A stretch of 64,000 bases of DNA, taken from an uncultured virus (IMG/VR IMGVR_UViG_3300023214_000431). Taxonomy: Duplodnaviria > Heunggongvirae > Uroviricota > Caudoviricetes. Of the stretch, positions 7,836-59,865 are shown one piece after another (within the stretch, counting starts at the first letter, position 1; every line of letters starts with the position of its first letter). Under the pieces are notes generated by a model. That model was given only the letters and a program-made list of their open reading frames with translations, searched no databases and was not told the origin of the DNA. The DNA lies in IMG/VR virus record IMGVR_UViG_3300023214_000431. One strand, 5' to 3'. Position numbers and translations under genes: made by a program.

Positions 7836-7888
7836 GCGCGGGGGCTACGCCGCGCGGATGGTGAGTAAATGCTAGCGTATCGTTATTG

Positions 7889-12510: not shown

Positions 12511-13359
12511 TCAGGCGTTGGCCTTATCTTCGATGAGCTTTTGGGGGATTTTCTTGTAGTCGGTGAGACCTGGGACGTTCTTTTGAGCGCCCAGGACGAA
12601 CTTCAGGATGTTTGTGCAAAGGATCTTCACTTCGGGCGCGAGCTTGCTCTGGTCGATTTCTTCTTGCAGTCCGGCGATCTGCTGAACAGATGCGCGTCGG
12701 GGCTTGCGTTGAGGGGGTGTGGGGTTTGATCCGTTTTTGTGATGGGGCTTGAAGGGTTTTCGACCGCCAAGCATTTTGGTGCGGACGCGCCATGCCTTGA
12801 GGGCTTCCTCGTTGGTCATGTGGGAATAGCGTTCCAGCTCGGCCTGGCTGACCAGGGGGTGCTGGGCTTGCCATGCTGCTCGCACTTCCTTGGGGACGTG
12901 TCGATACCAGCGGATGAGGTTGTAGACGTAGGGCTTGGAGAGGCCCACGACGGCAGCAAACTCGTTGCCGCGAACATCCCATTTCTCTTCCATCATGGCC
13001 GCCGACTCTGCGAGTTCGTAGTCGGTCATGTCCATGGCGAGGTAGCGCTTGAGAATGTCGACCCAATCTGGGATGGCCTTGGGACTCGGGCATTCGTAAG
13101 CGAGCACGATTGCTTTTATCTTGCGCCACTTGAGTACGCGTGCGGCTTCAACGATGAGGTCGCCCTCGCAAATCGTATACAGCTCTTTTTTGCTACCCTG
13201 GGGCTCCGCAGAGACGATGATGGGGATGAGCTGGCCTGTGGCCGACAGTTCTTTTTGAGCAGCGTCGATGGCGCTTTTGAGATGTCGCGGGCGTTTGGGG
13301 TGCTGTGTCTTCGCGATAGAGATGACGATTGATGGCGGCGGATTTTGGGCACGTTTCAT
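12511..13359 (-). CDS. ParB/Srx-like protein with HTH
   Basis: GQLIPIIV...YTICEGDLIVEAARVLKWRKIKAIV, then HTH EFAAVVGLSKPYVYNLIR. Confidence 0.65.
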   Translation of the reverse strand: MKRAQNPPPSIVISIAKTQHPKRPRHLKSAIDAAQKELSATGQLIPIIVSAEPQGSKKELYTICEGDLIVEAARVLKWRKIKAIVLAYECPSPKAIPDWVDILKRYLAMDMTDYELAESAAMMEEKWDVRGNEFAAVVGLSKPYVYNLIRWYRHVPKEVRAAWQAQHPLVSQAELERYSHMTNEEALKAWRVRTKMLGGRKPFKPHHKNGSNPTPPQRKPRRASVQQIAGLQEEIDQSKLAPEVKILCTNILKFVLGAQKNVPGLTDYKKIPQKLIEDKANA

Positions 13360-14282
13360 CAGGATGCTTCTCCCGCGATGGATGACAGGAGAAGCTCGGG
13401 CTTGTCGATGAGGTCGCGGAGCGACGCCATGTTCTCCATTTGCGAGAACGAATCCAGAAGAGACTGGACCGCCGAGCGGTAGGTCTCCAGGGTGATTCGG
13501 GCTTTGAGGTATTGCCAGCGCTGGAAGATAAAAGCGGTCTGCAAAGTGTCATCGAGGCAATAGGTGGCAATCTCTTCGAGCTTCCCGGCCTCGAACATGG
13601 CAGCAACCTGCGAGCCATCGGTATCGTCATGCTTGCCAGGCAACCCGATGAGCTGCGCAACAGAGTCGAGTTTGAGCCCGCGTGTTGCGCCGAAGTCGCC
13701 CATGGAGTCGCACAAGTCGGCGTGTTTGTTCTCGCTGTAACGATAGCGATAGTCCCGATCACCGAAGTACCACGGCATCTGGATGCCGCATTTGAGGCTT
13801 CGGAGCATGAGCACGGGCAGGTCGAATCCGCGACCGTACCACGAGACGACGGTGGGCTGGTGCTCGGCCATGAAGCCATTCCATTGCAAGAGCAGATCAC
13901 GTTCGCTCTTGTCGAGCTTGAGGCAGCCGACTTTCTTGGCGTGAAAGTTGGAATCGAGCCACACGCAGCCAATGGCGACGGGCTTGTGGGTGTGGATGGG
14001 AGCAAAGGGAGTTTTTTCGGGCTCGGGTTTGGTGAGAAATTTCTCCAGTCGGTCGAGTTTGTTGGTATCGCCCAGGCGGCGTGCGATGTCGTAAGCCTTT
14101 TCGACATCAGCAGGATGAATGGGCTGGTCGCCGATGCGCTCCATCACAACGTCGAGGAAGTTGACGCTATCCTTGGTGGGCTTTTTGTCGATGCTGATCT
14201 TCTCGATTTCAGGCTCGGGCGGCGTCCATAGCGTGAGGTCGGGAATGGTTTCGATGTCGAGTACGAGGTAGGTGGTTTGCAT
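13359..14282 (-). CDS. Stand-alone DEDDy 3'-5' exonuclease related to the PolB exo domain
   Basis: LDIETIPD, VSWYGRGFDLPVL, HADLCD, LPGK..DGSQV, YCLDD. Confidence 0.85.
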   Translation of the reverse strand: MQTTYLVLDIETIPDLTLWTPPEPEIEKISIDKKPTKDSVNFLDVVMERIGDQPIHPADVEKAYDIARRLGDTNKLDRLEKFLTKPEPEKTPFAPIHTHKPVAIGCVWLDSNFHAKKVGCLKLDKSERDLLLQWNGFMAEHQPTVVSWYGRGFDLPVLMLRSLKCGIQMPWYFGDRDYRYRYSENKHADLCDSMGDFGATRGLKLDSVAQLIGLPGKHDDTDGSQVAAMFEAGKLEEIATYCLDDTLQTAFIFQRWQYLKARITLETYRSAVQSLLDSFSQMENMASLRDLIDKPELLLSSIAGEAS

Positions 14283-14287
14283 GGGTC

Positions 14288-16585
14288 TTATCCGTATCGG
14301 TGCAGGACGGTGATGGCATTTTCCGTCTCGAATGAAGCGATGGGTGCTCGGTCACGGCGCGAGCCGCGATGGTTGTAGGAGCCACGCCTGGGCTTGTCTT
14401 CTTTGACGGCGATTTCGAGACGTTTGAGAAGCTCGTGCGGCACTTGTCGGCGGTAACGTTGCACAAGCCGCAAAGCCAGGTGGGCTTCCTTGTCGGAGAA
14501 CTCTTTTTTCTTGGTGGCGAGCTTGTGACCGATGGGGGCGTCGAAGTTGGAAAAGCCGTTACCCCCTTCGATGTTCGGGTCGCGTCGTTTAGCCAGAGCC
14601 ATGAGCGCGTCCTTGAGTACAATCTTCTTCCACAGCTCGATAGGTTCAACGGGGGCTTCGGGGCGCGCATTGATGAGCCCTTTGACGCCGACATCGGTAC
14701 TGATGTCCAATGCTCGGTCTGCAATCTCTTGCTTCGACACGATCATCTGGACCATGCGTGCATCGAGAGATCCATCGAGGACGAGGTGTTGCACGAGCAC
14801 GGAGTTTTCTTGCCCGATGCGGTGAGCCCGATCTTCTGCCTGGTTGACATTGCCGGGTGTCCAATCGAGTTCGGCGAACACGACATTGCTCGAAGCGGTC
14901 AGCGTGATGCCGACGCCGACAGCAGTCAGACCCGCGACGAAGATTTCGACGCCAGAGTTCTTGTCCTGGAATGCTTCGACGGCTTTGTTTTTGGCTTTAT
15001 CGGAGGTCTTGCCGTAGGCGACGACGGCGTACTTCTCGAACTTCTCGAACAGTGCCTCGATGACATCATGGTGGTGGGCGAAGAGGATGATCTTCTTTAC
15101 CCCTTCGTCACGCATCGCTTTGACGTGTTGGATGACGGATGGAATCTTGACGGTCGCGACTTTGCGACGAGTGGCAGCCATCTCCATGAAGGCAACACGC
15201 TGGATGTACTGGAGCTTATCGACGGCGCCGTTGTAGGCGCCCTTGTCGTTGTTCTCTTCAGCGATGGACAGTGCTGTTTGCACCATTGATAAGTCTTCAC
15301 CGAACTTGCGGTCCCACTCTTCGAGTTCCTGGGCGATGAGTCGCTTGGCTTCTTCAGTGGGCGGCAGTGAAATGATCTGACGGCGCTTTGGAGGAAGCTC
15401 CTTGAGAACGTCTTGCTTGAGCCTGCGAATCATGCAGGTAGCACGCAGACGTTCTTGCAGCTCTTCGAGGTTGGAGGCGCCATCGAATTTGAAGACCTTC
15501 TTGGTCTCGCTGACCATTTCCTCGTGGCCATCACAGTATCGAAGCGCGAAGTTCTTGAAGCTGCCGAACTGGTCAGGCGCAAGCGCTGAGAGGATGGGCC
15601 ATATCTCGATAGGGCGGTTGGGGATCGGCGTTCCGGTCATGAAGATGCGTTTGCGTCCGAGGTCGGCTAGGCCGGGCTTTTTTTTCATTCGGTCGCCGAG
15701 GACAGCGCGGCTGCGTTGTGAATCGAGGTTCTTCAGAAAGTGGGCCTCATCGATTGCAACCAGATCCCACTCGCGCTCTTGTAAAGACGCGACGATTTTG
15801 AGGTTGTTCTCGGGCAAGCGGCCCTTGCCGTTGCAACGGTGACAAAAGACAGTCTTGCGACCGAGACAGTTTTCGCAGAGCAAAGGTTCACGGGGACCGT
15901 TGCCTGAGCCGCCGCACTTGGGGCATGGCAGAGGTTCGCGGCGCTTGCCTTTGCATGGTCCCTGGCATCGCTTGTAACCGATGCGGCAGCGGTCGTAGGA
16001 CACGATGACGAAGTTGGCTTCCTTTGGAATGGAGCGATCTTCGCTACCGATGTAGAGCAGCCACTGTCGTTCATCAGGGACAAGCCAGCGTCGTGCTTCC
16101 TTCTGCCAGTTCAGGCGCAGCGATGCAGGCGAGATGATGAGGACGTTTTGAATGGACTTGTCGTAGTTGATGGCGCCAAGAACCTGGATGGTTTTTCCGA
16201 GGCCGGGCTCGTCACCAAGCAACGTGCCTTCCCGATCTGATAGGTAGTGGATGCCAGCTTTCTGGTATCCCAGGTAGGAGAGGTTTCGTGGCGATGGGAT
16301 CTCGATTGGGGCATCGGTGGCGCGAGATTTCTCGACGGCTTGCAGATGCGAGGTCAGTTGCTTCTTTGCGATGTCGTCAGCGTGTGCAGACAAGCGAGCA
16401 GCGGCGGCATCGCGTCGGGTCCACCACCCCTTTTTCAAACCGGCTCGGCAGGCGGCGCAAGAAGCCGGACCTCTGTCACATTCCACCAAACCTGGATGCC
16501 ATACGAACCCGGCTTCTCGGAGGGCGTCGCGCTCTTCATACGTCGCGATGGCGAAGTAGATTCCGTTTCGGTGGCTGATGCGCAT
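14288..16585 (-). CDS. SNF2-family (SMARCAL1/HARP-like) helicase with Cys-rich insertion
   Basis: GDEPGLGKT, IDEAHFLKN, TGTPIPNRP, IRRLKQDVLKELPPK, GVGITLT, QAEDRAHRIGQ. Confidence 0.92.
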   Translation of the reverse strand: MRISHRNGIYFAIATYEERDALREAGFVWHPGLVECDRGPASCAACRAGLKKGWWTRRDAAAARLSAHADDIAKKQLTSHLQAVEKSRATDAPIEIPSPRNLSYLGYQKAGIHYLSDREGTLLGDEPGLGKTIQVLGAINYDKSIQNVLIISPASLRLNWQKEARRWLVPDERQWLLYIGSEDRSIPKEANFVIVSYDRCRIGYKRCQGPCKGKRREPLPCPKCGGSGNGPREPLLCENCLGRKTVFCHRCNGKGRLPENNLKIVASLQEREWDLVAIDEAHFLKNLDSQRSRAVLGDRMKKKPGLADLGRKRIFMTGTPIPNRPIEIWPILSALAPDQFGSFKNFALRYCDGHEEMVSETKKVFKFDGASNLEELQERLRATCMIRRLKQDVLKELPPKRRQIISLPPTEEAKRLIAQELEEWDRKFGEDLSMVQTALSIAEENNDKGAYNGAVDKLQYIQRVAFMEMAATRRKVATVKIPSVIQHVKAMRDEGVKKIILFAHHHDVIEALFEKFEKYAVVAYGKTSDKAKNKAVEAFQDKNSGVEIFVAGLTAVGVGITLTASSNVVFAELDWTPGNVNQAEDRAHRIGQENSVLVQHLVLDGSLDARMVQMIVSKQEIADRALDISTDVGVKGLINARPEAPVEPIELWKKIVLKDALMALAKRRDPNIEGGNGFSNFDAPIGHKLATKKKEFSDKEAHLALRLVQRYRRQVPHELLKRLEIAVKEDKPRRGSYNHRGSRRDRAPIASFETENAITVLHRYG

Positions 16586-22545: not shown

Positions 22546-23148
22546 ATGTTCATCGTAATCGAAGGCGTCGACGCTGTTGGAAAAACAACGGCGTGTGAAC
22601 GGTTAGCAAAGAAAGTTTCGCATGAGTTGAAGCGCGCCATCCATTCAATCGCCTTCCCGCGCTACAACACACAACTTGGCTGCACCATTCTTGCATGGCT
22701 CAAGGATGGTCGTGCTCTTGAGTACCCGCTAGCTTTCCAGGCGATGATGTCAGCAGACAAGATTGATGCTGCGACCATGCTCGAAGTGTACATGCAACGC
22801 GGTTCAGACATCGTGTGCTCTCGCTACTGGCAGTCCGCGCACGCATACGGAGTTCCGTCAGGCTCCGTCCCCCCCGAGATTCTCGCTGACTTCCACAAGC
22901 CGCTCCCGCAAGCGAACTACAACATCCTTCTTGACATGCCTATCGATGAGGCTCTGGCGCGTCGACCTGACAAGCGTGACGCCTACGAAAAGAACCCTGG
23001 CTACTTGGAAAAAGTTCGCCAGGAGTATCTGAATTTGTGGACAGCCGAACACAAGAAGTCCGAGCACTGGTCGGTAGTCGATGCCTCGAAGTCCGCCGAT
23101 GAAGTCTTCAACCACATCTGGGCGGAAATTTTTCTGACCGCCATTTGA
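22546..23148 (+). CDS. tmk: Thymidylate (dTMP) kinase
   Basis: FIVIEGVDAVGKTT P-loop, FPRY, SRYWQS.AY, DAYE...L.KVR. Confidence 0.88.
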   Translation: MFIVIEGVDAVGKTTACERLAKKVSHELKRAIHSIAFPRYNTQLGCTILAWLKDGRALEYPLAFQAMMSADKIDAATMLEVYMQRGSDIVCSRYWQSAHAYGVPSGSVPPEILADFHKPLPQANYNILLDMPIDEALARRPDKRDAYEKNPGYLEKVRQEYLNLWTAEHKKSEHWSVVDASKSADEVFNHIWAEIFLTAI

Positions 23149-31847: not shown

Positions 31848-32047
31848 TGACCGAAAAGGAAATGGCGAAAGAGAATCGCAAGTTCTACATCCGTCTTGCG
31901 CTCTGGGCATTGGGCGGTGTATTGACCGGCTACTTCGCGACCGAGCTGGTCGAAATCGCTGAAGGGGCAAGGTTCTTTATCACCACCGCCACAGGTCTGA
32001 TCGCAGGCTTCATCTGCATCCTGCATACCAACTTCAAGCCGATGTAG
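31844..32047 (+). CDS. Small two-TM membrane protein
   Basis: GGAGG SD; two hydrophobic segments. Confidence 0.55.
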   Translation: MMTEKEMAKENRKFYIRLALWALGGVLTGYFATELVEIAEGARFFITTATGLIAGFICILHTNFKPM

Positions 32048-32128
32048 CTCAAAAGGAAGAGCACCCCACCAACAATGTCTGCACGCATGGTTGCAAGGTA
32101 GATGCAGGTTCGAGTCCTGCCATCGGCG
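32038..32128 (+). tRNA. tRNA-like RNA with an extended non-canonical anticodon arm (identity undetermined)
   Basis: Acceptor GCCGATG/CATCGGC, D-arm GCTC-AAAAGGAA-GAGC, T-arm GCAGG-TTCGAGT-CCTGC; 40 nt between position 26 and the T-stem instead of ~22; no encoded CCA. Confidence 0.7.
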
Positions 32129-32130
32129 CT

Positions 32131-32625: not shown

Positions 32626-33255
32626 ATGGAACTTCTCAGCATTGAAAAACTCACTGACACGGCGGCCCCCTGGGCGCACGCTGTTCACGACCAGGCGAAA
32701 GCCAAAGGTTGGTGGAAAGATGGCGTCGAAGAGCGCAGCCCCGGCAACACCATCTTTCTCATGATCTCGGAACTGTCCGAGTCCTTTGAGGTCTACCGCC
32801 TCCCAGATCGGGAAATCGCCGACATCTGGATGGAGCCGACCAAGGAAAACCCCGAGGTCAAAAAGCCCGAAGGCTTGCCCGTTGAGCTGGCCGACACCAT
32901 TATTCGGTGCTTGGACCACATCGCCGCTCTCGCGCCGACCTGTGGTGGTGACGCCATCATCCAAATCAGCGCGCTCGATGCGTTGGATGACAAGCCCCAG
33001 ATCAACCCGGAAACGGTGTATGGCGACATCATGATGGCCATCACCAAGATGCTCTGTGGCGCCCACAACGCTTTCTTCACCGAGAACAGCAGCAAGGAGC
33101 GCAACCGCCGTCGCGCCATCCGTCAGTTGATGGGCGTTGTCGTCACCATTCTTGCCATGAGCGATGCGCTCAGCCTGGATGTGCCAAAGGCTGTGGAACT
33201 CAAGCACGCCTACAACGGCACTCGCTCCCAGCGGCACGGAGGGAAGAAAGCGTGA
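32626..33255 (+). CDS. MazG-like NTP pyrophosphohydrolase
   Basis: AKAKGWW, LMISELSE..E.YR, KPEGLPVELAD.IIRCLD, K.AYN.TR..RHGGK. Confidence 0.8.
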   Translation: MELLSIEKLTDTAAPWAHAVHDQAKAKGWWKDGVEERSPGNTIFLMISELSESFEVYRLPDREIADIWMEPTKENPEVKKPEGLPVELADTIIRCLDHIAALAPTCGGDAIIQISALDALDDKPQINPETVYGDIMMAITKMLCGAHNAFFTENSSKERNRRRAIRQLMGVVVTILAMSDALSLDVPKAVELKHAYNGTRSQRHGGKKA

Positions 33256-36482: not shown

Positions 36483-36722
36483 GTGCTCAACAAGCAAGGT
36501 CTCAGAATCCTCGACACCCCCGACATCACTATCGTCCTTTTTCCTGAACTCAGAGGCAAACACGACTGTCGGCACTGGCGTCAGCGCAAGGAAGTGGACG
36601 CGGCCACGGGCGAAAGCGAGGAAATCTACCGCTGTGTGATCTGCGGAGACCGCTGGCCAAAGACCATCGTGGCATCCCCGACCACCAACCTCGGCTCGAA
36701 GCTCAAGGGCGCGGTTCAATGA
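36483..36722 (+). CDS. Small Zn-ribbon protein
   Basis: CRHW...YRCVICG; GGAG SD. Confidence 0.45.
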   Translation: MLNKQGLRILDTPDITIVLFPELRGKHDCRHWRQRKEVDAATGESEEIYRCVICGDRWPKTIVASPTTNLGSKLKGAVQ

Positions 36723-37729
36723 AGAAGCGCGTCCTCATCACAGGCGGCGCAGGGTTCATCGGTCAGCACCTGGCCGGTACGCTGGTCAGTCGTAGCGAAC
36801 AACATGAAATCGTCATCATGGACAACTTCTTTACCGGTTCGCGAGACAATCTAAAAACGCCATCCTTGTCCGGTTGCGAAGCCATTCGCCACGATGTCTG
36901 CGACCCATTCCACATCGAGGTCGATGAGATTTATCACCTGGCGTGTCCGGCTTCGCCTGTTCACTACCAACGCAACCCTGTGCGGACCATCGAGACCGCT
37001 GTCCTTGGCACCTCAAACGCCTTGCGGTGCGCCCGCGACGTGGGAGCAAAAATCTTCATTGCTTCCACGAGCGAAATCTATGGCGATCCTATCGTCCATC
37101 CTCAAACCGAGAACTACAACGGCAACGTGAGCACGCTCGGCCCACGCGCTTGTTACGACGAAGGAAAGCGCTGCGCCGAATCGCTCGCGATCTCCTATAT
37201 GAATCAGTACGGTGTCGACGTTCGCATCGCTCGCATCTTCAACACCTACGGTCCTGGAATGCAGTTCAACGACGGTCGTGTCGTCTCAAACTTTATCCAT
37301 CAAGCACTCCAAGACGAGCCGCTGACCATCTATGGCGATGGCAGCCAGACTCGCTCTTTCTGCTACGTCGCTGATTTGGTCAAGGGCATCCTCTCCTACA
37401 TGGAGATGGACAAAAAGCCAGATCAGGAAATGGTGGTGAACTTGGGCGATCCGAACGAGCGCACCATCGTCGATCTGGCTACCCTGGTCGCCGAAGGGGT
37501 CCGAGCCATTGGGCGCCCGGGACTGTCCAGGGGCACGCCTTTTCAGATACACGCGCCTGTCTTCAAGCCGCTCCCCAAAGACGATCCCGTCGTGCGGAAG
37601 CCGGATATTTCGCGAGCGCAGGAGTATTTTGGCTTCTCGCCGAGCTTCACCCTCAAAGAAGGTCTCGCAAATACGATCTCCAATTTCCACGCTCGGATGA
37701 GCAAGAAGGAACAGGCCCTCTACACGTAG
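36719..37729 (+). CDS. UDP-glucuronate decarboxylase (UDP-xylose synthase), extended SDR
   Basis: TGGAGFIG, IYHLACPASPVHYQ, ASTSEIYGDP, GPRACYDEGKR, RIFNTYGP, DGRVVSNF. Confidence 0.92.
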   Translation: MKKRVLITGGAGFIGQHLAGTLVSRSEQHEIVIMDNFFTGSRDNLKTPSLSGCEAIRHDVCDPFHIEVDEIYHLACPASPVHYQRNPVRTIETAVLGTSNALRCARDVGAKIFIASTSEIYGDPIVHPQTENYNGNVSTLGPRACYDEGKRCAESLAISYMNQYGVDVRIARIFNTYGPGMQFNDGRVVSNFIHQALQDEPLTIYGDGSQTRSFCYVADLVKGILSYMEMDKKPDQEMVVNLGDPNERTIVDLATLVAEGVRAIGRPGLSRGTPFQIHAPVFKPLPKDDPVVRKPDISRAQEYFGFSPSFTLKEGLANTISNFHARMSKKEQALYT

Positions 37730-45245: not shown

Positions 45246-45833
45246 TCATGTAAGTTTCCTGATAGTTGGGGCCTCGTACTGCGGCTTCACTTCCTTGAAG
45301 ATCCGAACGAACATGATTCCTTGTTCGATGGCATCGTCAAGCGCGTGATGCGTAGGGAAGTTGGCCTTGGTAGCTCCTTTGAAGCCTTTTTTGGCTTTGA
45401 GGACGCTCATGGCAAGTGTTTTGATGTCCAGAGCCTGGAAGCCGAACGGCGAGCTGCCGAGGTACTTTATGAAGTACCAGTACAGGAACATGAAGTCATA
45501 GCTCGCGGGATAGGCGACGCAGACGGGCTTGGCCTCGTGCTTGTTGCACAACTGTTCGATCCACCTACGCGTGATGCGCATGGCATCGTCAGGGGCGGCC
45601 GGGTTGACTCGGGTGGCGTCATAGGCCGCCTTGTTTTTCTTCGAGCCGTTCCAGAACTCCATGGTGCCAGGGTGCTGGTCGTTGGAGATCTGAACGAGGT
45701 TCATCTCGTGTGTACCAACTGGCGTTTCGTTGCCAGGCTCGAACGCAGCGAGGCCATAGGACAGCATCGAATACGGGCCTGGAATGGGGCCATCGGATTC
45801 GACATCGAGGGAGAAGTACAGCTCTTTTGCCAT
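45246..45833 (-). CDS. DEDDh 3'-5' exonuclease
   Basis: SLDVESDGPIPG, YDFMF, LDIKT, THHALDDA. Confidence 0.85.
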   Translation of the reverse strand: MAKELYFSLDVESDGPIPGPYSMLSYGLAAFEPGNETPVGTHEMNLVQISNDQHPGTMEFWNGSKKNKAAYDATRVNPAAPDDAMRITRRWIEQLCNKHEAKPVCVAYPASYDFMFLYWYFIKYLGSSPFGFQALDIKTLAMSVLKAKKGFKGATKANFPTHHALDDAIEQGIMFVRIFKEVKPQYEAPTIRKLT

Positions 45834-48879: not shown

Positions 48880-50679
48880 ATGAAACGTAAGACCAGCTCG
48901 AAGCCTACCCGCATTTACTCCTTTTGGTGCCACGGCCCCACTCCCGAGACTGCCGAGCTATTCAAAAAGCAGTACCGTGCAGCCAGGCGGTTCAAAAACA
49001 AGCTCATCGAAATCGAGCAGCTCCGTCGCAAAAGACGCGATGAACTTGTGGCTCAGGTTCGAGCGGTTGCTGGAACCGACGCACAGATTGCTGAGTGTCA
49101 GAAGAAAATCGAGAATCTCCGCAAGGCTGTAAAAAGCGTTCACATCAAAGAGCGTTCGCGCAAAACCAACAGCACAGCCAAGAACCAGATCGCACAAGAG
49201 AAAGCCGAGCTGAAAAAGCTCTACGCGCTCCGCAAACAGCAGGCTGAGACCGCGCGCAATGAGCACGCCGCTGACCTCAAGCAGATCGATGATGAGTCCT
49301 ATGTAGCCAGAAAACTGGCATATAACGAAAGCGACTGCCAGTGGGGAACGAAATTGCTCGTGATGAAAGCGGCCGAACAAGCGGCGAAAACCCCCACAGG
49401 TCCACAGTTCCGAAAAAGCCTCCGTATTGCTCCTTGCGATCCAGGCCCCACAGGGCGCATCGGTGTTCAGATTCAGTCGACAAAACCTCTAGGCAAAGAG
49501 AAGCTGCTGCAACGAGGCGACACGCGCTTACGTATCACGTTGGCAGACCGGTCTCTCCCTCAAACGGGTAAGCGGCCTTTGGGTAGCGTGGAGATTCGAC
49601 TTGGAAGCGATGGTCGCAAACCCATCTGGGGCAAGATGCCTTGCAAGTTCAACCGCGAGATACCTGATGACGCTGACATCAAATGGGCATGGATAAAGCG
49701 GAGCAAGGAAGGACAAAAGATCCGCTACAAACTTTCCTTGGTGATTGAGTCAGAAACCTTCGCGACGCGAAAGCAGGCCCACCCGTACGCGCTTTGCGCA
49801 CTCGACGTGGGTTGGAGAAAGAAGCCTGAGGACAGCCATCTTCGGTTTGGGTTCTTGTATGACGGCAAGAACTGTCAGTCCTATCAATTTGACCCGCGCC
49901 TACAAGGTGCTCTGAACAAGGCAGCCGATCTCCAGAGCATCCGCAAGAAAAAGTTCAACACCATAAAAACAGCGATCTTGTCAGTGCTTTCGGAAAGGCC
50001 CGAAGCGAAGGAAGTCTTCAAGCACCTCGACAAGATCAAAAGTCCGCAATCGCTTTATCGCCTCTTCTTCGAGTGGAGAGAAGCTGGGAGCCCAGGAGAC
50101 GATCTCTTCGGCTTACGCTTCAACGAGTGGCGCCTGCGAGAAAACCATCTCTATCGCTACGAAAGCGGCACTCGACGCCATGTTCGAGCGTCTCGCAAAG
50201 AAACGTACCGTCAGACAGCACGCCAGCTTGCTTTGACTTACGAGACCATTGTCATCGAAAAATTTGATTTGCGTAAGGTCATTCGTCGGCAAGAAGCTGA
50301 AGACAAGGACGCCGAGATGCACGATGAAGCGCGCTCGCAGCGTTTCCAGGTTGCCATCAGCGAGTTTCGGCGTGAGCTGGCAGTCCAAGCTCAAAAGCAT
50401 GGCTCACGCATTCTCGGAGTGGATGCCGAATACTCGACGCTGACCTGTCACCACTGCGGATTCACGGAAACCTGGGATAAGATTCCTTTCATCAAGCACA
50501 CCTGCGCGTCCTGCAAACGCACATGGGACCAGGATGAGAACGCCGCCATTAACTTGTTCCAGAAGGCCACGCACAAACTGAAAAACGAGCGGTCCAGTGA
50601 CATTCAAAAGCCGGGGACCGCTCGCAAAAAGAAAAACGCTGGGTTAAACAATACAAGTGGAGCACCAGCGGCGCTCTGA
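48880..50679 (+). CDS. cas12m: Compact type V CRISPR effector, Cas12m (V-U1)-like, with an apparently intact RuvC triad
   Basis: 599 aa; long N-terminal coiled coil; G.IGVQIQ, RLGS....W, R.IPDDADI; RuvC-I ALDVGWR (D309), RuvC-II IVIE (E460), Zn ribbon C523xxC526/C542xxC545, RuvC-III WDQDENAA (D552); array starts 71 bp downstream. Confidence 0.85.
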   Translation: MKRKTSSKPTRIYSFWCHGPTPETAELFKKQYRAARRFKNKLIEIEQLRRKRRDELVAQVRAVAGTDAQIAECQKKIENLRKAVKSVHIKERSRKTNSTAKNQIAQEKAELKKLYALRKQQAETARNEHAADLKQIDDESYVARKLAYNESDCQWGTKLLVMKAAEQAAKTPTGPQFRKSLRIAPCDPGPTGRIGVQIQSTKPLGKEKLLQRGDTRLRITLADRSLPQTGKRPLGSVEIRLGSDGRKPIWGKMPCKFNREIPDDADIKWAWIKRSKEGQKIRYKLSLVIESETFATRKQAHPYALCALDVGWRKKPEDSHLRFGFLYDGKNCQSYQFDPRLQGALNKAADLQSIRKKKFNTIKTAILSVLSERPEAKEVFKHLDKIKSPQSLYRLFFEWREAGSPGDDLFGLRFNEWRLRENHLYRYESGTRRHVRASRKETYRQTARQLALTYETIVIEKFDLRKVIRRQEAEDKDAEMHDEARSQRFQVAISEFRRELAVQAQKHGSRILGVDAEYSTLTCHHCGFTETWDKIPFIKHTCASCKRTWDQDENAAINLFQKATHKLKNERSSDIQKPGTARKKKNAGLNNTSGAPAAL

Positions 50680-50750
50680 TGGGCAATGGTAGTAGGCGCT
50701 TGAAAACGCGCTTGCAACCAATCGAGTTCTTTGACAATTTAAAAGCTGCC
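50680..50750 (+). promoter_or_regulatory. CRISPR leader
   Basis: Relatively AT-rich 71 bp between the cas stop and repeat 1; the degenerate repeat lies at the opposite end. Confidence 0.6.
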
Positions 50751-51422
50751 GTAGCGAAGCGTGCTAGGACGCAGATCTTCCTAGACACAGGTAGCTACGT
50801 CCGATTTAGCAGGGGAGAAGGAGTAGCGAAGCGTGCTAGGACGCAGATCTTCCTAGACGACCTGCTCCCGCGTCCCCCTTTTGACACGGAGGAACCGGTA
50901 GCGAAGCGTGCTAGGACGCAGATCTTCCTAGACTGATCTTTTCGGGTTGCCTACACCTGAAAACATCACGTAGCGAAGCGTGCTAGGACGCAGATCTTCC
51001 TAGACTGATCTTTTCGGGTTGCCTACACCTGAAAACATCACGTAGCGAAGCGTGCTAGGACGCAGATCTTCCTAGACTGTCCTGCGGGCGACGCGCCTGC
51101 AAAGCTGATCGAGGTAGCGAAGCGTGCTAGGACGCAGATCTTCCTAGACTGCCCATGGCCACCACCTCTTTTGGCCTCGACGACGCCAGGTAGCGAAGCG
51201 TGCTAGGACGCAGATCTTCCTAGACGATGTCCTGCTCCAGACTGCTCTTGGAGGGCCTGCATGGGTAGCGAAGCGTGCTAGGACGCAGATCTTCCTAGAC
51301 GGTCACGCGGTAGCGAAGCGTGCTAGGACGCAGATCTTCCTAGACCCCACTGTGATGCGCGACGAATTTCCCATGACCCAGATGTATCGAAGAAGGGTGC
51401 TAGGGCGCAGCTCTCCCTAGAA
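50751..51422 (+). CRISPR. CRISPR array: 9 identical 36-bp repeats plus 1 degenerate terminal repeat, 9 spacers
   Basis: Repeat GTAGCGAAGCGTGCTAGGACGCAGATCTTCCTAGAC starting at 50751, 50823, 50898, 50970, 51042, 51114, 51190, 51265, 51310; degenerate copy 51384-51422; spacers 36, 39, 36, 36, 36, 40, 39, 9, 38 nt; 3' hairpin CTAGGA/TCCTAG. Confidence 0.98.
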
Positions 51423-53735: not shown

Positions 53736-54521
53736 GTGGACACTCAAAACTTGATATTGGTGCTCGGTCTCTTCAAGCGCACCGGCACCAACTACCTGAA
53801 AGACCTTCTCTGCTGCCACCCCGCTTGCGTGTTCTCTCGCATCCCTGAAGACTTCTTGCTCGTTAAATCCGATCTACTGCTCAAGTACGTCGAGCAGACC
53901 TACACGGCATGGGGCATCGCGGGAAAGCACCTTCAGCCTCAGCTCATGGAGCACATTCGTAAGGGGCTCGTCCAACTGCTAGCAAGCCACGCACGCAATG
54001 CTGGACACCCAAGGCGCGTCGTGTGCAAGACACCCACGGTCGAAGGCATCGAGAACGTCGATGCACTCTTCCCAGGCGCCAAGGTCGTTGTCATCGTACG
54101 AGATGGTCGTGACACGCTTGAATCCGGGCGACGGTCATGGGATTGGCTACTACCGGAAAAAGCCGCCGAGTGGCGTCAGAACGTGCAGCGGCTACTGACC
54201 TTCGAGCACAACAATCCTGGCCGGTGCCTTCGCATCCGCTACGAAGATCTGATGACGGACATGCACGGGGTGATGGGTGAAGTGCTTGAGCACTGTGGCC
54301 TCGGCCAGACCTTATACAATTGGAATCTGGCTGCAAGGTTGCCGGTGCGTGGCAGCTCGGACATTCGGCATAAGGGAGGCCCCGCAGAGCGAATGCACTG
54401 GCGTGGCGTTGAGCGTCCCTCGGATTTCTCACCGATGGGCAGGTGGCAATCCTGGTCGCCACAAGACCGTCTCGACTTCGACGCCATTGCAGGCGATATG
54501 CTGAAGGTGCTTGGCTACTAG
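53736..54521 (+). CDS. Sulfotransferase family protein
   Basis: 5'-PSB VLGLFKRTGTNYL, KTP, 3'-PB IVRDGRD..ES, IRYEDL. Confidence 0.85.
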   Translation: MDTQNLILVLGLFKRTGTNYLKDLLCCHPACVFSRIPEDFLLVKSDLLLKYVEQTYTAWGIAGKHLQPQLMEHIRKGLVQLLASHARNAGHPRRVVCKTPTVEGIENVDALFPGAKVVVIVRDGRDTLESGRRSWDWLLPEKAAEWRQNVQRLLTFEHNNPGRCLRIRYEDLMTDMHGVMGEVLEHCGLGQTLYNWNLAARLPVRGSSDIRHKGGPAERMHWRGVERPSDFSPMGRWQSWSPQDRLDFDAIAGDMLKVLGY

Positions 54522-55237
54522 AGCTTTATCTTGACAATTCCAAGCAAATCGTGCTGTGGGTTCATCAAGCTCTTGTTCAGATCTGCGAACTCGAACTTAA
54601 CAGCAACCCCCTGTGTGATCTGAATTGGCAGGAGCTGTTTGAAGTTCAGGTAGGTGCGGCCCTCCGGATCTAGCGCGAAGTCGTATGGAATTTCATCTCC
54701 ATACCGGATGTCCTGGTGTGGGTGAACAAAGGCTGTTTCGTGAAAGCTCAAAGAGACCTGCTCTGTCTTGAGTAGCTCGGCGAGCCGAGGGGTGATCAAG
54801 AAAGCCTGAGCTTGGCAAAGAACCTGAGAGATGGCTGTGCCGCGTAGATCGAATGGCAGCAGAGCATTGTAGTAGGACCGGTTTCGTTCTTCTCTCAGAT
54901 CGAGTACCCCGCGTCCAACGTAGTTGCCGCCCTTCGAGGCGGTTTCATCGTCGGCGACATGCAAGAGATTCACTACGTAGTCCATTGCAGCAGGCGCTTT
55001 GTCGAGAAACAGATCATGAGCCTGGAAATGATCGAGAAGCTCAGAATTGAAATGGCCTGGGCATACAGATTGTGAGTTATTTCCCACTTTGATGTCGCTC
55101 ACGAGTGTTCCCTTGGGCAACGGAGGCTCGAACTTGAAACCAGTGATCGAAAGGAGCATGAGGTAGTTGTTGGACAGGCGGAAGTTGGTTGAATTTCCTA
55201 CCTTGAAATTCAACGGGCCTGAAACGGTATGAGTCAT
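54518..55237 (-). CDS. Beta-rich DIKVGxNSQ-family protein (longer paralog)
   Basis: VSDIKVGNNSQ...LFLDKA; AAGGAG SD. Confidence 0.55.
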   Translation of the reverse strand: MTHTVSGPLNFKVGNSTNFRLSNNYLMLLSITGFKFEPPLPKGTLVSDIKVGNNSQSVCPGHFNSELLDHFQAHDLFLDKAPAAMDYVVNLLHVADDETASKGGNYVGRGVLDLREERNRSYYNALLPFDLRGTAISQVLCQAQAFLITPRLAELLKTEQVSLSFHETAFVHPHQDIRYGDEIPYDFALDPEGRTYLNFKQLLPIQITQGVAVKFEFADLNKSLMNPQHDLLGIVKIKL

Positions 55238-55268
55238 TTTTGTTGGCTCCTTTGTCTTTTTGCGATTA

Positions 55269-56423
55269 TTAGTTCCGCAGTTGGAAGTTGAAAAGCTCCA
55301 ACCACTGAATGCCCATCTTTTCTTTGGCAAAGAAGGTCTTGCTGACCTCGGCGAGCTTCTTGCCTTCTTGAAGGAAGGCATCGTAGTTGTCGAAAGCAAG
55401 TTTCACCGATTGGACAACAGCATCAATGTGTTCGCGTCCGTAAGGCAGCTTGAAGAGCCTGCCGCCGATGACGTAAGGAGCAACACCTGGGGCAGCCGAA
55501 CAAAAGGGCACAGCGCCCAGGTACTGCGCCTCGATGAGCGTGTCGATGTCGTAATGGTCCATCTTGTCGGAGCAATGGACATAAGCCGCGCAGGAGCTGT
55601 CCAGCTCTTCGGCAAGCTCGATGTCGTGCGAGCGCAGCCCAGCACGAATGCGCTCAACGAGGACTGTTGGACCGTTGTAGGTGACATAGGCGCAGCGCCG
55701 CTTCTGCTCTTGCGCGGTTGGTAGCGCAATACCGGGCCGGTACAAGATCGAGAAAACCCTATCTGGATCGATGAAGGGAAAGTGTTCGAGGAAGATTTGC
55801 CTGACCTCGCCCGAGTAGCACACGAAGCCTTTGACGTGAGCGAGGGCTTCGAACTTGCTTGCATCGAGATTCCGCAAGTCTTGCTGGGAACGAATGAGAA
55901 GGTGTGTGGGCATGTCCATGAAGTCTGGTGAAATCGACACGCGCCCATCGGGAGCAAACGTGCAGCCCAGATCTTCGAGTGCGTCGACAAGCGCGGTGGG
56001 GCCCTTGTTGAAGCGAATGGGCATTGGCCATTTGAGGCACGTCGCCAAGTTTTCCATCTCGCCTATGATGGCTTGGTGGCCACTGGCGCGAGCGTATTCG
56101 AGACCTCGCTGGGTGAAAGTCCACTTGTGGCGCAAGTTGAAGTGCGCGTAGGCAATATCGGCGAAAAACTCCTTGAGGTTTTCTTGCTCGAAGAAATCAG
56201 GGGGCGCGCATTGCGCGGCAAGGTGGGCAAGTCGTACCACATCCCCCGAGCAGCTTTGTCCTTGTGCTCGATACATGAGCGAGGCGAGCCGGAAAGTCAC
56301 CTCATAGTTTGATGGCGCAATGAGATGGGCCTCGGTCAGCAGCCCCACGGCTTTGGCGTTGTCGGTAGTCGAGTCCGCTTGCTCGACCAGATCGACGACG
56401 CGCTGAGGATTCCAGTCCTTCAT
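55269..56423 (-). CDS. TPR-like N-terminus plus GT-B glycosyltransferase-like domain
   Basis: Helical repeats; C-terminal TLIEAQYLGAVP resembles the GT-B EA...G.P motif. Confidence 0.5.
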   Translation of the reverse strand: MKDWNPQRVVDLVEQADSTTDNAKAVGLLTEAHLIAPSNYEVTFRLASLMYRAQGQSCSGDVVRLAHLAAQCAPPDFFEQENLKEFFADIAYAHFNLRHKWTFTQRGLEYARASGHQAIIGEMENLATCLKWPMPIRFNKGPTALVDALEDLGCTFAPDGRVSISPDFMDMPTHLLIRSQQDLRNLDASKFEALAHVKGFVCYSGEVRQIFLEHFPFIDPDRVFSILYRPGIALPTAQEQKRRCAYVTYNGPTVLVERIRAGLRSHDIELAEELDSSCAAYVHCSDKMDHYDIDTLIEAQYLGAVPFCSAAPGVAPYVIGGRLFKLPYGREHIDAVVQSVKLAFDNYDAFLQEGKKLAEVSKTFFAKEKMGIQWLELFNFQLRN

Positions 56424-56746
56424 TCCTTCCCTTTCAGGCTCACCAAGATCTCGAAACCCGAATCTTCCATCAGTGACGGCGTGTCCTGCTGCATGAAGGT
56501 CCGCAGCTCATGGACGTTTTCGCTGACGGTTTCGAGGTGGTAGCGGCGCGGACCTTCGCCCTTGAGCTGTACGTCCACCTCGTGGGCGCCTGTGCCCGGG
56601 GGCACCTCGATGACGTACTCGCCGAGAACGGGATTGCCATCTCGATCTAAAGACCGGGAGATCTTGCAGTTCACGGCGTCGGGGGTTTCGCCGGGGGTGT
56701 AGCGCCCGTAGGCCACAGGAGTTTTGGGTTTGGGTTGACCATCCAT
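56420..56746 (-). CDS. Hypothetical protein
   Basis: Leaderless start after the shared motif and TAGGCT. Confidence 0.5.
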   Translation of the reverse strand: MDGQPKPKTPVAYGRYTPGETPDAVNCKISRSLDRDGNPVLGEYVIEVPPGTGAHEVDVQLKGEGPRRYHLETVSENVHELRTFMQQDTPSLMEDSGFEILVSLKGKE

Positions 56747-56775
56747 GGCGCGAAGCCTAACATCGAAATCCGACA

Positions 56776-57732
56776 ATGGGAACCGAACTCGCAAATCTCG
56801 CAAATACCATCGAGCGGGCCTTCTGTGCCTTGGCCTCGGTCACCACTCACTACAACCGCTTCGACTACGAGGATGGTGACGACTTCATCGAAACGATGAT
56901 GACCATTGAATCGCTGGTTGCAAACGGCGGGGTGAACCATCGCGATCTGGTTGCTCGATTTCGCGCCGGGCGTCGCACCGAAATCAATGGCCGAATCGTC
57001 ACTTTCGGCAACCGCGATGCTACAAGCCAGATGGGCAAGCTGCGTGCGTCCAAAGACCCTTTCTACCTGGCAACCGATGGTCAGACCAACGGCGCAGCGA
57101 TGCGGGCGATGGCACCCGCGTTCTTCTTCACGAGCTTCGACGAGATGGTCTACGCCACGGCTTTCATCTCACGCATCACGCACGCGCATCCTGACGCCCA
57201 GATGGCTGCCGTCATGATGGCTCTGGCCTACCGTCTGGCGTTCCTCGAAAGAGGGGATTGGAGCCTATCTGACCTGGTTGTTGATGTTTCTCGCGCCATG
57301 GTTCTCCTTGGTCCTGCATACGAGCGCTCAGGGCTATACATCGTCAAAACATTGGAACTCTTTCCAACGAGTGCCAACGAAATCAAAAGCGACATCGGCT
57401 TTTGCCACTCAGCCAACTCGTCCCCGCTTGCAGCCGTCATCGTCGGAAAAGACGTACAACGCTGCTACGAGTTTCTCGACCACGGCTTTCCTCCAGAGCC
57501 GCACAAAATCTGGCTTGGAAGCGACCGCTACCTCGATGAGCTGGATGACAATGACAGCGCACTTAATCACCTGGGCACAGAAGATCGGGCTGCTAGCACA
57601 ACCTATGACGCCGACACCTTCTACTCGATGGCAATGCCCTTGATGGCGATGCGTGAGCGCGGCCCACGCAAGCACGGCATTTTCGAGAGCTTCAAAGAGT
57701 TGAGCCAGGAGCTTGCAAAACGATGGGCATAG
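56776..57732 (+). CDS. ADP-ribosylglycohydrolase (ARH/DraG)-like protein
   Basis: DGDD, TNGAAMR..P, SRITHAHP.A, DADT. Confidence 0.75.
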   Translation: MGTELANLANTIERAFCALASVTTHYNRFDYEDGDDFIETMMTIESLVANGGVNHRDLVARFRAGRRTEINGRIVTFGNRDATSQMGKLRASKDPFYLATDGQTNGAAMRAMAPAFFFTSFDEMVYATAFISRITHAHPDAQMAAVMMALAYRLAFLERGDWSLSDLVVDVSRAMVLLGPAYERSGLYIVKTLELFPTSANEIKSDIGFCHSANSSPLAAVIVGKDVQRCYEFLDHGFPPEPHKIWLGSDRYLDELDDNDSALNHLGTEDRAASTTYDADTFYSMAMPLMAMRERGPRKHGIFESFKELSQELAKRWA

Positions 57733-58364
57733 TGTGGGGCAAATCGGGTTTCTTCCTGGGGAGGTTCAGCGCATCGCTAGCCGCCGAAACCCGCAAGATC
57801 TTGCTACAGCATTTCTTGAACCCGAAGGACTACAATCCAGACCGGGTTCATCAATACGAAGAGTCAACCTTCTTCCCGCGTTTGGCTGTAAGCGAGCGAA
57901 TGAAGACCCTTGGCGCTGAAGTTGCTGGAGCGGCTTTTGGCAAGCTCATGACCTGTCGTTCGGCTCAAATTGCGTTGCGCTTTCCCGAGCGCCCTGCGGT
58001 GCCCTGGCACGTCGACAAGGTTTGCGCGCACGCTGCCGCACTGATGAGGGCTCCGATTGACCATCCCTTCAAAACCGACGCCATCGTGGGATTATATCTA
58101 TCACCAGTCACACTCGACAGCGCGCCTTTGACGCTCGACTCTGCCAGCCATACGGACAACATAGCGTTCGCCAAAGAACACGGCTACAAGATGCTGAGGC
58201 GCGGGGTGCTCCCAAAGCGGAAACCCGAGCCAGTCGTCATCATTGGCGACCCAGGCCAAGCCATCATGATGCACCCACTTCTCACCCACATGGTTCCTGA
58301 AAACAAAAGCAACGACATCCGGGTCGCTGTCTACTTCCGAATGATCTACCACGGATCTGCATAG
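57723..58364 (+). CDS. 2OG-Fe(II) dioxygenase, PhyH-like
   Basis: QIALRFP, WHVD, VGLYLS, SH, GDPG....H..L.H....N....IR.AVY. Confidence 0.7.
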   Translation: MGIVWGKSGFFLGRFSASLAAETRKILLQHFLNPKDYNPDRVHQYEESTFFPRLAVSERMKTLGAEVAGAAFGKLMTCRSAQIALRFPERPAVPWHVDKVCAHAAALMRAPIDHPFKTDAIVGLYLSPVTLDSAPLTLDSASHTDNIAFAKEHGYKMLRRGVLPKRKPEPVVIIGDPGQAIMMHPLLTHMVPENKSNDIRVAVYFRMIYHGSA

Positions 58365-59122
58365 TGATAGCTCAGAAAAAACGCGTCACGGTCCTCTCGT
58401 GCCCAGGGCGTGAAGACCAGCTCTTCACCACACTCAGAGCACTCAACGCCTCGGGGCTCGAAGGCGCAAACGAGTACATCGTATACACCGATGGTCCTAT
58501 TCTGGGCAGCGACGGATTTCACTTCATGGGCCGATGGACAATCGAAAACCTATGGGCCCCGCAAAGAGCATCGAGAAAGAACCTGGAAGCCTTCTACCGG
58601 ACTGTCGTGATGGCCTCGATAGAAAAGGTGGGAATGAACTTATTTCTCGAAGACGACATTCGCCCGTGCCAGGGAGCCATCAAACGCATGTTCGATGTTG
58701 GTGTTCCCGAGGGCGCGCCCTTCACCACCTTCTTCGATATGAAAGAGTTCTATCCCGGCACGCCCGAGGGACTCTACAAAGTTCCTTTACATGGGGTGGA
58801 TAGGCGTGGCTTTTGGGGTCTGCAAGCTGTTCTGTTCAATCAGCCCCTTATCACCGAAGCGATTGTCGAACCAGGCTCCAAGGGCCGAGAACACTTTCAC
58901 GAGCGCATGGCGAAGTACAAGGCGCACTCCGACATGGTTTTGATCGAGGCTCTTGAAAAGGCCGGATACGACCATTACGCTGCTCACCTGCCGTGTTTGG
59001 TCGAGCACGTAGGCCACGCCAACTCATCAATTTGGAAGTTTGGCGAGCACGACATTTCTCGCAAGGCCACCAACTTCCCTGGCGAGACCTTCAACACACA
59101 GGCGCTGAGAAAATTCACATGA
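58364..59122 (+). CDS. GT-A glycosyltransferase-like protein
   Basis: LFLEDDI, FWGLQAVLF, PCLVEHVG..SS. Confidence 0.6.
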   Translation: MIAQKKRVTVLSCPGREDQLFTTLRALNASGLEGANEYIVYTDGPILGSDGFHFMGRWTIENLWAPQRASRKNLEAFYRTVVMASIEKVGMNLFLEDDIRPCQGAIKRMFDVGVPEGAPFTTFFDMKEFYPGTPEGLYKVPLHGVDRRGFWGLQAVLFNQPLITEAIVEPGSKGREHFHERMAKYKAHSDMVLIEALEKAGYDHYAAHLPCLVEHVGHANSSIWKFGEHDISRKATNFPGETFNTQALRKFT

Positions 59123-59865
59123 GCTATGCCCCAAAGGCTCAGCGATACTCACAACAGGAACGACGCCAAATGATGAACTCAGGCACCACCATCATTCTCT
59201 GTGAAGGCGATCAAAGTCGCCTGTGGAATCTCGCCGAGATTAAGCAATTCATCCACTTTGGTGGCAGGCCGTTGCTTAGCCGTACCATCGAACAGATTGA
59301 CAGACATATCGGTCGCCAAAACATCATTCTCAACGGGCCCGACAACCACACCTGGAAGACCTACGCTCAAGAGCGCGGCCTTCCCCTCGTCCATGAAAAA
59401 AACCGCGACCCCGATCAGCCTTTTCTCGACGTTCTCGAACACTTCATGGGGCTGTGGAATACCGAAGCGCCAACAACATTTCTCTACGGTGATGTCATCT
59501 GGTCCGAGCGTATGATGCGCGAGCTGTACAAGCCCCGCCACAATGAGATCTGGTTTGCCACTCGTTTCTCCCCCGCGCCCGGCATTGGTACATGGCGTGC
59601 GGAAATCTACGGCTTCACGTTCCTCCCGAGTTTCCACGCCAAGCTCAAGGAGATGCTCAAGTCGCGCCAGCCCTCCCCCTACCATGCCATTGACGACGTG
59701 TGGGGGCTCTTTCATTGGCTCATGGACACGCGTGACAACCTGTCCGGCGAGCCGGGCTTTCTCGACGCAGGCGAAGACGACTACACCTTCGACATCGACT
59801 ACCCAGGTGATGTCGAAGGCATTCCCGTTCTCGAAATGCTTGCAGCCGAAGAACAAGGCTCATGA
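59119..59865 (+). CDS. Nucleotidyltransferase (sugar or choline-phosphate type)
   Basis: IILCEG.QSR.W...KQ.....PLL.RTI.Q, FLYGDV..S, DIDYP.D. Confidence 0.7.
   Translation: MSYAPKAQRYSQQERRQMMNSGTTIILCEGDQSRLWNLAEIKQFIHFGGRPLLSRTIEQIDRHIGRQNIILNGPDNHTWKTYAQERGLPLVHEKNRDPDQPFLDVLEHFMGLWNTEAPTTFLYGDVIWSERMMRELYKPRHNEIWFATRFSPAPGIGTWRAEIYGFTFLPSFHAKLKEMLKSRQPSPYHAIDDVWGLFHWLMDTRDNLSGEPGFLDAGEDDYTFDIDYPGDVEGIPVLEMLAAEEQGS

Follow-up and report, generated by a model that had tools for sequence, protein, structure and literature searches.

The 64,000-nucleotide stretch of DNA analysed here (the window; IMG/VR record IMGVR_UViG_3300023214_000431, from an uncultured virus of the Caudoviricetes) carries a minimal type V-M CRISPR locus, in which the gene for a full-length Cas12m effector with the canonical D-E-D RuvC triad is followed by a repeat array. 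By analogy with tested relatives, the locus is on balance probably a silencer directed against rival mobile elements, in which a CRISPR RNA (crRNA) would guide binding to DNA flanked by a protospacer-adjacent motif (PAM), without cutting. The assignment to Cas12m is founded on sequence, profile and predicted fold, with which the structure of the repeat agrees.

Protein identity and locus layout

In a phmmer search of the Protein Data Bank (PDB), the best match of the protein was chain 23vw_A ('CRISPR-associated DNA-binding protein Cas12m'; E 3.2e-63, residues 10-560), followed by 8pm4 (GoCas12m), 23vu (UnCas12m4a) and 8hhl/8hio (MmCas12m2). A family profile comprising 150 relatives (A2), when searched against the PDB sequences, matched 23vw at E 1.7e-181, 8hio and 8hhl at E about 3e-94, 8pm4 at E 4.2e-89 and 23vu at E 1.1e-76. 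The next chain, TnpB-like and matched at its C-terminus only, appeared at E 6.3e-16, leaving 60 orders of magnitude between the five Cas12m PDB sequences and the TnpB-like chains. The 23vw chain is TfCas12m, the N-terminal text of the two being identical, and a literature search for a paper on the 23vu, 23vv and 23vw structures found none. The PADLOC Cas12u1 model matched residues 9-564 (E 4.1e-83; profile positions 2-531 of 533), V-U1 being the former name of V-M (PMC11013384). A PADLOC model labelled Cas12f (PDLC01692) also matched over the full length with a score like that of the Cas12u1 model, and presumably represents the same V-U1 group under an older label. The sole Pfam match was PF07282 (Cas12f1-like_TNB; E 6.5e-13, residues 495-559), the NCBIfam TnpB models reached 39-49 bits against cut-offs of 100-425 and covered residues about 416-588 only, and the PHROGs label for the family of this protein is 'transposase'.

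The fold predicted with AlphaFold2 (AF2; mean predicted local distance difference test score, pLDDT, 91.6; predicted template modelling score, pTM, 0.87) agrees with this assignment. The top four Foldseek matches of the model were Cas12m structures, aligned over the whole chain with template modelling (TM) scores of 0.65-0.79 (0.79 for 8hhl), against about 0.4 for TnpB and Cas12f structures. The modelled architecture is bilobed, with a wedge (WED) domain, a long helical recognition (REC) region, RuvC and a zinc-ribbon target nucleic acid-binding (TNB) domain. Two other identities were considered and rejected. For TnpB, the scores lie below the NCBIfam cut-offs, no TnpA is present, the gene is followed by a CRISPR array and not by an omega-RNA, and the query-based TM score (TMq) is ~0.4. 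For Cas12f, a dimer of 400-550 amino acids (aa) per protein that employs a trans-activating CRISPR RNA (tracrRNA), TMq values were 0.37-0.43, and no anti-repeat was found.

The family profile recovered 3395 representative clusters at E <= 1e-30, with the nearest database protein being 49% identical to the window Cas12m. When metagenomes and genomes were scanned for related loci with a four-sequence alignment (A3), four metagenome loci with Cas12m relatives were found. Positions 1973-2914 of a 3049 bp metagenome contig (L008, LFUG01005142.1) encode residues 1-314 of the window protein at 100% identity, so that this GenBank whole-genome shotgun record contains the same element at least in part. 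A search of IMG/VR with the protein returned two distant viral loci (L001 and L002).

The locus consists of three features:

48880..50679, + strand: cas12m gene, 599 aa, ATG start; type V-M (V-U1) effector with a D-E-D RuvC triad
50680..50750, + strand: gap between gene and array, 71 bp; presumed leader, from its position
50751..51422, + strand: CRISPR array of nine identical 36-nt repeats and one degenerate repeat, with nine spacers

The 599-aa open reading frame (ORF), the 71-bp gap and the ten-repeat array of a preliminary description of this DNA were thereby confirmed, as was its view of the protein as Cas12m-like, on which phmmer, profile, PADLOC and AF2/Foldseek agree. The 36-nt repeat, GTAGCGAAGCGTGCTAGGACGCAGATCTTCCTAGAC, is present in nine exact copies (starting at 50751, 50823, 50898, 50970, 51042, 51114, 51190, 51265 and 51310), and the tenth, degenerate copy at 51387-51422 is identical at 26/36 positions. 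Its 24-nt core occurs nine times in the window, where 100 shuffles give an expectation of 0.00. The degenerate copy is located at the distal end of the array, which fits a leader on the gene-proximal side. A promoter and terminator scan gave no convincing promoter at the gap, and an Rfam scan likewise gave nothing useful. The spacers measure, in order, 36, 39, 36, 36, 36, 40, 39, 9 and 41 nt. They comprise seven distinct full-length spacers, one duplicate (spacers 3 and 4, 50934-51041, are identical) and a 9-nt stump (spacer 8, 51301-51309). The preliminary description mentions neither the duplicate nor the stump.

The absence of cas1, cas2, cas4, TnpA and an anti-repeat, also noted in the preliminary description, was borne out. 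A Pfam scan of 65 window ORFs gave no match to the Cas1, Cas2, Cas4 or TnpA families, and no anti-repeat was matched in the window outside the array at <=3 mismatches. Local alignment from -4.9 kb to +3.1 kb gave a best anti-repeat score of 21, where shuffles averaged 18.4 and reached 31 at most. Type V-M loci are described as having arrays with other cas genes absent (PMC10691335), a layout which the window fits with its lone effector adjoining an array. The same gene-then-array order is found in four related loci (L001, L007, L009 and L010) and in Virus Rctr197k. Repeat spacing is highly irregular in L007 (4398-5049) and L009 (1156-1807), with spacers of ~3-52 nt, and likewise in L010 (11980-12404), with spacers of ~5-36 nt. 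The irregular arrays in this neighbourhood of the Cas12m family look as though they were shaped by inter-repeat deletion and duplication, and not by a Cas1-Cas2 ruler.

The array spacers had no self-targets in the window at <=30% mismatches, the whole array had no match in the phage and plasmid collections in the 'distant' mode of blastn, and the first 24 nt of two of the seven distinct full-length spacers had no exact match in IMG/VR. An exact search of IMG/VR with the 36-nt repeat also returned no match.

RuvC triad, crRNA contacts and guide RNA

The window protein was aligned with three published Cas12m proteins from plasmid records, three virus-borne relatives and 162 library proteins, giving 169 rows, none of which were dropped. 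The features of the protein are located as follows:

48952..49386, + strand: long helical, coiled-coil-like REC region, residues 25-169, from DSSP on the model
49651..49653, + strand: codon of N258, a near-invariant His elsewhere (HRxLP motif), from the aligned column
49804..49806, + strand: RuvC-I Asp309 codon (ALDVGWR), aligned with the Asp of AIDLGWR in 23vw and with H317 (ALHLGWR) of MmCas12m2
50257..50259, + strand: RuvC-II Glu460 codon (IVIEKFD), from alignment and profile
50446..50514, + strand: zinc ribbon/TNB with C523, C526, C542 and C545, cysteines kept in 160-167/169 sequences
50533..50535, + strand: RuvC-III Asp552 codon (WDQDENAA), Asp in 167/169 sequences

By this alignment D309, E460 and D552 are the true RuvC positions, as the preliminary description had placed them. 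It had also treated the intact triad as exceptional, a view which does not hold, as D-E-D is the commonest state near the window protein: it is found in 133/169 aligned sequences and other states in 36/169, a tally which describes the neighbourhood of the window protein, the 150 representatives being the top matches of a window-centred profile, and not the whole family. Published Cas12m clades are distinguished by their triads, with HEK/HQK in clade 1, HDD in clade 2, DED/NED in clade 3 and DED/DND/NED in clade 4 (PMC10442227), and the window triad is compatible with clade 3 or 4.

A FastTree phylogeny of the 169 rows, with local support only and no bootstrap, leaves out TfCas12m, UnCas12m, ApCas12m, MmCas12m, GoCas12m and MvCas12m. 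The window protein falls in an all-D-E-D group of four with the library proteins P0001, P0002 and P0062 (support 100), which sits within a 31-row clade with D-E-D in 30/31. The D-E-D protein MsCas12m shares a 167-row ingroup with it, and the non-D-E-D state requires at least 16 changes on the tree. The window protein is on this tree nested inside Cas12m. The profile search, phylogeny and structure prediction thus agree on a Cas12m placement, with no clustering with IS200/605 TnpB. The suggestion that the protein is intermediate between TnpB and Cas12m was rejected, as it nests in the Cas12m tree and both fold (TM 0.79 to Cas12m, about 0.4 to TnpB) and profile separate it from TnpB.

The REC region of the model consists of five helices by DSSP (H25-58, H61-91, H98-128, H130-150 and H155-169), and a coiled-coil REC2 insertion is described as characteristic of Cas12m2 (Omura et al., PMC10442227). 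Residues R118-K119 align with R111-R112 in the Arg-rich pocket for the non-target strand of MmCas12m2. The N-terminal sequence MKRKTSxxPTRI (48880-48912, residues 1-11) is strikingly conserved in many relatives that are only 27-35% identical, and passes into the model's first WED strand (E10-17).

The WED His-Arg pair (H269/R270 in MmCas12m2), a conserved though not formally defining feature, is only half retained. The HRxLP column holds His in 161/169 sequences and the window protein has the sole Asn among the 169, while the Arg that follows (R259) is kept in 169/169. By profile alignment N258 corresponds to H269 of MmCas12m2, which is reported to hydrogen-bond crRNA C(-1) and to stack on G(-23) (PMC10442227). 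The L008 fragment carries N258 too. The other near-invariant residues are all kept, and the ORF is intact at full family length.

The repeat RNA is predicted to form a pseudoknot whose two stems interleave. In stem I, G9-C10-G11 is paired with C20-G21-C22 (positions 9-11:20-22), stem II pairs C14-U15-A16-G17-G18-A19 with U29-C30-C31-U32-A33-G34 (14-19:29-34), and the unpaired A35-C36 abut the spacer. The window, L007, L010 and the PpCas12m plasmid array together supplied 20 repeats for an alignment, in which pairing holds in 98.1% of cells and 6/9 pairs have changed on both sides. None of 500 shuffles reached the observed values (0/500), and slid controls fell to 28-55% paired. The degenerate terminal repeat retains the pairing via a compensatory G19:C29. 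Related repeats in the gene-then-array order occur in the L007/L009 and L010 metagenome loci, and in the plasmid arrays of MsCas12m, MkCas12m and PpCas12m the elements stem I, GC, stem II and ...GAC follow one another in the same way. As predicted from its sequence, the repeat is of the Cas12m type, with a ~36-nt pseudoknot scaffold ending directly 5' of the spacer, and would work with one crRNA and without a tracrRNA. Together with the finding of no anti-repeat, this scaffold makes the locus look tracr-independent, as had been proposed. The unique change from His to Asn at residue 258, along with a Watson-Crick-paired -23 position in the repeat, could indicate altered recognition of the crRNA 3' handle.

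Proposed activity and alternatives

The locus is taken to be a minimal type V-M system on a mobile element, which is probably a large phage but may instead resemble a plasmid. The array would be transcribed together with the gene from the + strand, and each repeat would fold into the Cas12m-type pseudoknot with ...GAC directly 5' of the spacer. Since the scaffold abuts the spacer, a single crRNA would guide the protein, without a tracrRNA. The complex would recognise PAM-flanked DNA, form an R-loop and stay bound, thereby blocking transcription or replication of a competing mobile element with no cutting, and new spacers, if still acquired, would have to be provided by an adaptation module acting in trans. 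What we infer for this protein from tests on its relatives is that it binds without cleaving, processes its own pre-crRNA and has a role in competition between elements.

Eight Cas12m proteins have been tested, four of which have the D-E-D triad (MsCas12m, ApCas12m, UnCas12m and TfCas12m; Bigelyte et al. 2024, PMC11013384, Table S2). Cleavage of double-stranded DNA (dsDNA) in a PAM-library assay is reported for 0/8 and PAM-dependent DNA binding for 6/8 (PMC11013384). The same source records no cutting of target DNA or RNA and no collateral activity for purified MsCas12m and GoCas12m, unaffected pre-crRNA processing in MsCas12m D274A, and plasmid interference when TfCas12m was aimed at the plasmid ori. 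For MmCas12m2, the RuvC site is reported to serve in metal-mediated binding of the non-target strand, and conversion of HDD to DED is reported not to have restored cutting (PMC10442227). The statement in the preliminary description that characterised Cas12m proteins have degenerate RuvC sites is incomplete, as 4/8 of the tested proteins are D-E-D, none of which cut dsDNA (PMC11013384). The step from an intact triad to a likely nuclease is weakened by the tests of these four relatives and by D-E-D being the majority state.

Several points weigh against a binding-only silencer. Omura et al. allowed for possible DNA hydrolysis by the D-E-D clades 3 and 4 (PMC10442227), and the negative assays are described as performed at 37 °C in one buffer, with only two proteins purified (PMC11013384). 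Retention of the triad in 133/169 sequences across deep divergence argues that it does something. With Asn at residue 258, where the MmCas12m2 counterpart is a crRNA-contacting His, the protein could bind its guide differently. Searches of the window, of the phage and plasmid collections and, for 2/7 spacers, of IMG/VR yielded no protospacer, and the duplicate and 9-nt spacers hint that maintenance of the array has ceased. Furthermore, with the closest database relative only 49% identical, activity is assigned by analogy.

The strongest alternative, though rather unlikely, is that the protein is a true RNA-guided DNase, in which the D-E-D site would hold two metals and cut or nick the target, perhaps slowly, on one strand or under particular conditions, thereby destroying rival DNA. 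The three canonical catalytic positions align with the RuvC residues of solved Cas12m and TnpB structures, and the frequency of D-E-D among the relatives, including 30/31 members of the clade of the window protein, suggests selection on the triad. The possibility raised for clades 3 and 4 (PMC10442227) has a counterpart in the preprint on the myxophage MV-1, which suggests nuclease activity for a phage D-E-D Cas12m (bioRxiv 10.64898/2026.09.14.751636). However, none of the four D-E-D orthologues, which include TfCas12m, the closest with a solved structure, and UnCas12m from a viral scaffold, showed cleavage (PMC11013384). The failure of the HDD to DED conversion to yield cutting in MmCas12m2 implies that features besides the triad block catalysis, and metal-mediated binding of the non-target strand would also explain the conserved acidic residues (PMC10442227). 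It is unlikely that D-E-D is maintained by selection because this branch, found here on an element resembling a phage, is a real but conditional nuclease or nickase missed by assays at 37 °C.

The locus may instead be a decaying or repurposed remnant which confers no immunity and either regulates genes of the element or host or has no function, and this is considered quite unlikely. The absence of adaptation genes, the duplicate and 9-nt spacers, the degenerate terminal repeat, the Asn in place of a near-invariant crRNA-contacting His and the lack of protospacers in the collections searched would all fit such a remnant, as would the still more irregular arrays of the relatives (spacers of 3-52 nt). 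Against it, the full-length ORF shows no damage and no other change at a near-invariant residue, nine repeats are base-identical, the degenerate repeat too preserves the pseudoknot pairs, and seven spacers have a normal length. Moreover, type V-M and virus-borne arrays usually have neither adaptation genes nor spacer matches. An IS200/IS605-type TnpB beside an unrelated repeat array would account for the shared TNB zinc ribbon as the only Pfam match, the NCBIfam matches to the C-terminal third and the 'transposase' label, but is effectively refuted by the scores of those matches far below their cut-offs, the lack of TnpA, the TMq of about 0.4 to TnpB against 0.79 to Cas12m, and a repeat scaffold which co-varies with the protein clade across loci.

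At present the locus contributes a further divergent D-E-D Cas12m from a mobile element, and little else. The wider question concerns the family, in which most members keep a canonical two-metal triad and the tested members do not cut. Should suitable conditions reveal cutting by some D-E-D members, these would be small nucleases that need only one RNA, and the window protein, if among them, would be a tracr-independent RNA-guided DNase of ~600 aa. If none cut, the role of the conserved triad, possibly in metal-mediated strand binding, still needs explaining. For answering this question the window offers no advantage over hundreds of relatives.

Carrier element and comparison with known systems

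The preliminary description called the system virus-encoded, and a viral origin is not borne out by the window itself, as 0/111 ORFs match structural, packaging or lysis categories of PHROGs, with 27/111 having any PHROG match. The window represents 64 kb of a possibly larger element, and a phage carrier remains compatible with the missing hallmark genes. The impression from gene content is that the carrier is more probably a large phage than a plasmid. The replication genes comprise a family B polymerase of the protein-primed type, RecD2-like and SNF2 helicases and a PolB-like exonuclease, and there are also Dam and other methyltransferases, ParB-like proteins, a NikA-like protein and one tRNA-like gene. 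Published type V-M systems are strongly enriched on plasmids and also occur in some prophages (PMC11656645). No host lead was obtained, the genome scan having given only two distant matches, to metagenome-assembled genomes, at 24-27% identity.

Several neighbouring genes merit description. The polymerase (PolB; PF03175, 814 aa) adjoins the RecD2-like helicase at 3277-7835 (- strand), and the PolB-type 3'-5' exonuclease and SNF2 helicase are located at 13359-16585 (- strand). Among phages and plasmids the polymerase has only distant (~27% identity) relatives of the tectivirus type, unusually for an element whose length is 64 kb or more, and it has none in IMG/VR or in the three virus records carrying Cas12m relatives. 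Nucleotide-pool genes at 8540-10913 (- strand), 22546-23148 (+ strand) and 32626-33255 (+ strand) include a 5' deoxyribonucleotidase (NT5C), a nucleoside 2-deoxyribosyltransferase-like ORF, a thymidylate kinase and a MazG-like pyrophosphatase. Two ORFs at 9823-10698 and 10374-10913, both with PHROGs matches, overlap by ~325 nt on the same strand, which may reflect a frameshift or a miscalled start. A sugar and modification cluster at 53736-59865 encodes a sulfotransferase, a GT4/CgeB-like glycosyltransferase, an ADP-ribosylglycohydrolase, a PhyH-like dioxygenase and an NTP-transferase-like protein, with an NAD-dependent epimerase encoded separately at 36719-37729. An Atlas search with two large unannotated ORFs identified one as a glycosyltransferase, with nearest clusters mostly from Planctomycetota, and gave no match for the other. 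ARAGORN predicted a 92-nt tRNA-Cys with anticodon ACA at 32038-32129 (+ strand), of which both the length and the anticodon are odd. A 195-aa exonuclease at 45246-45833 (- strand), 3 kb upstream of the cas12m gene, matched the PADLOC model 'Effector, Exonuclease' (PDLC00753, E 7.6e-30) and the Pfam Rv2179c-like 3'-5' exoribonuclease family.

D-E-D Cas12m proteins of viral provenance are already known from UnCas12m on an IMG/VR scaffold, from the 2026 preprint describing MvCas12m in a type V-M locus of myxophage MV-1 (bioRxiv 10.64898/2026.09.14.751636), and from the record of Virus Rctr197k (L003, KX853510.1; Caudoviricetes, 197 kb). The last encodes, at 5971-7839, a D-E-D homologue which is 30% identical and annotated 'similar to transposase', and an annotated 1.5-kb CRISPR of about 21 repeats lies directly downstream (7873-9387). 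As this record is older than the MV-1 preprint, the claim of that preprint to a first phage Cas12m is weakened. A second small CRISPR in the same virus (655-909) adjoins another 'transposase-like' gene.

TfCas12m of Thermoanaerosceptrum fracticalcis (QNB45423.1; PDB 23vw), a single crRNA-guided effector, is the best full-length sequence match in the PDB, with triad D306/E459/D550 (D309/E460/D552 in the window) and 567 aa (599 aa). It is chromosomal (CP045798.1, Table S2), whereas the window gene stands in a mobile-element context, and it keeps the His (VVLHREIP) where the window has N258. It is divergent in sequence and is not the nearest relative in the metagenome data. By their published descriptions, two further proteins are alike. 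UnCas12m (583 aa; D304/E457/D548) is D-E-D, of similar size and from IMG/VR scaffold Ga0104756_100012943 (PMC11013384), and MvCas12m has D305/E463/D555 and 610 aa. The MV-1 locus is described as resembling that of the window in its adjacent array (8 spacers), with no cas1/2/4, tracrRNA or spacer targets reported, but its carrier, unlike the window, is a complete phage genome with an assigned host. MsCas12m from plasmid pMESIL02 of Allomeiothermus silvanus (WP_013159911.1; D274/E429/D518) likewise belongs to a mobile replicon and has a downstream array of the same repeat layout, but it is 25.6% identical by tblastn, has 536 aa and belongs to a different subclade.

The clade 2 proteins MmCas12m2 and GoCas12m (8hhl, 8hio and 8pm4) share the whole-chain fold (TM 0.75-0.79), a pseudoknotted crRNA scaffold and the basic pair at R111/R112 with the window protein, although Foldseek identity is only 17-19% and their triad is H-D-D with one Mg2+ bound (PMC10442227), compared with D-E-D in the window. 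The pseudoknot-plus-stem scaffold described for the crRNA of PmCas12m and MmCas12m2 is the scaffold predicted for the window repeat. TnpB (ISDra2, 8exa) and Cas12f share only the C-terminal core of RuvC and zinc ribbon and are without the long helical REC insertion (TMq ~0.4). TnpB works with an omega-RNA, and Cas12f as a dimer with a tracrRNA, and there is no sign of either arrangement for the window protein.

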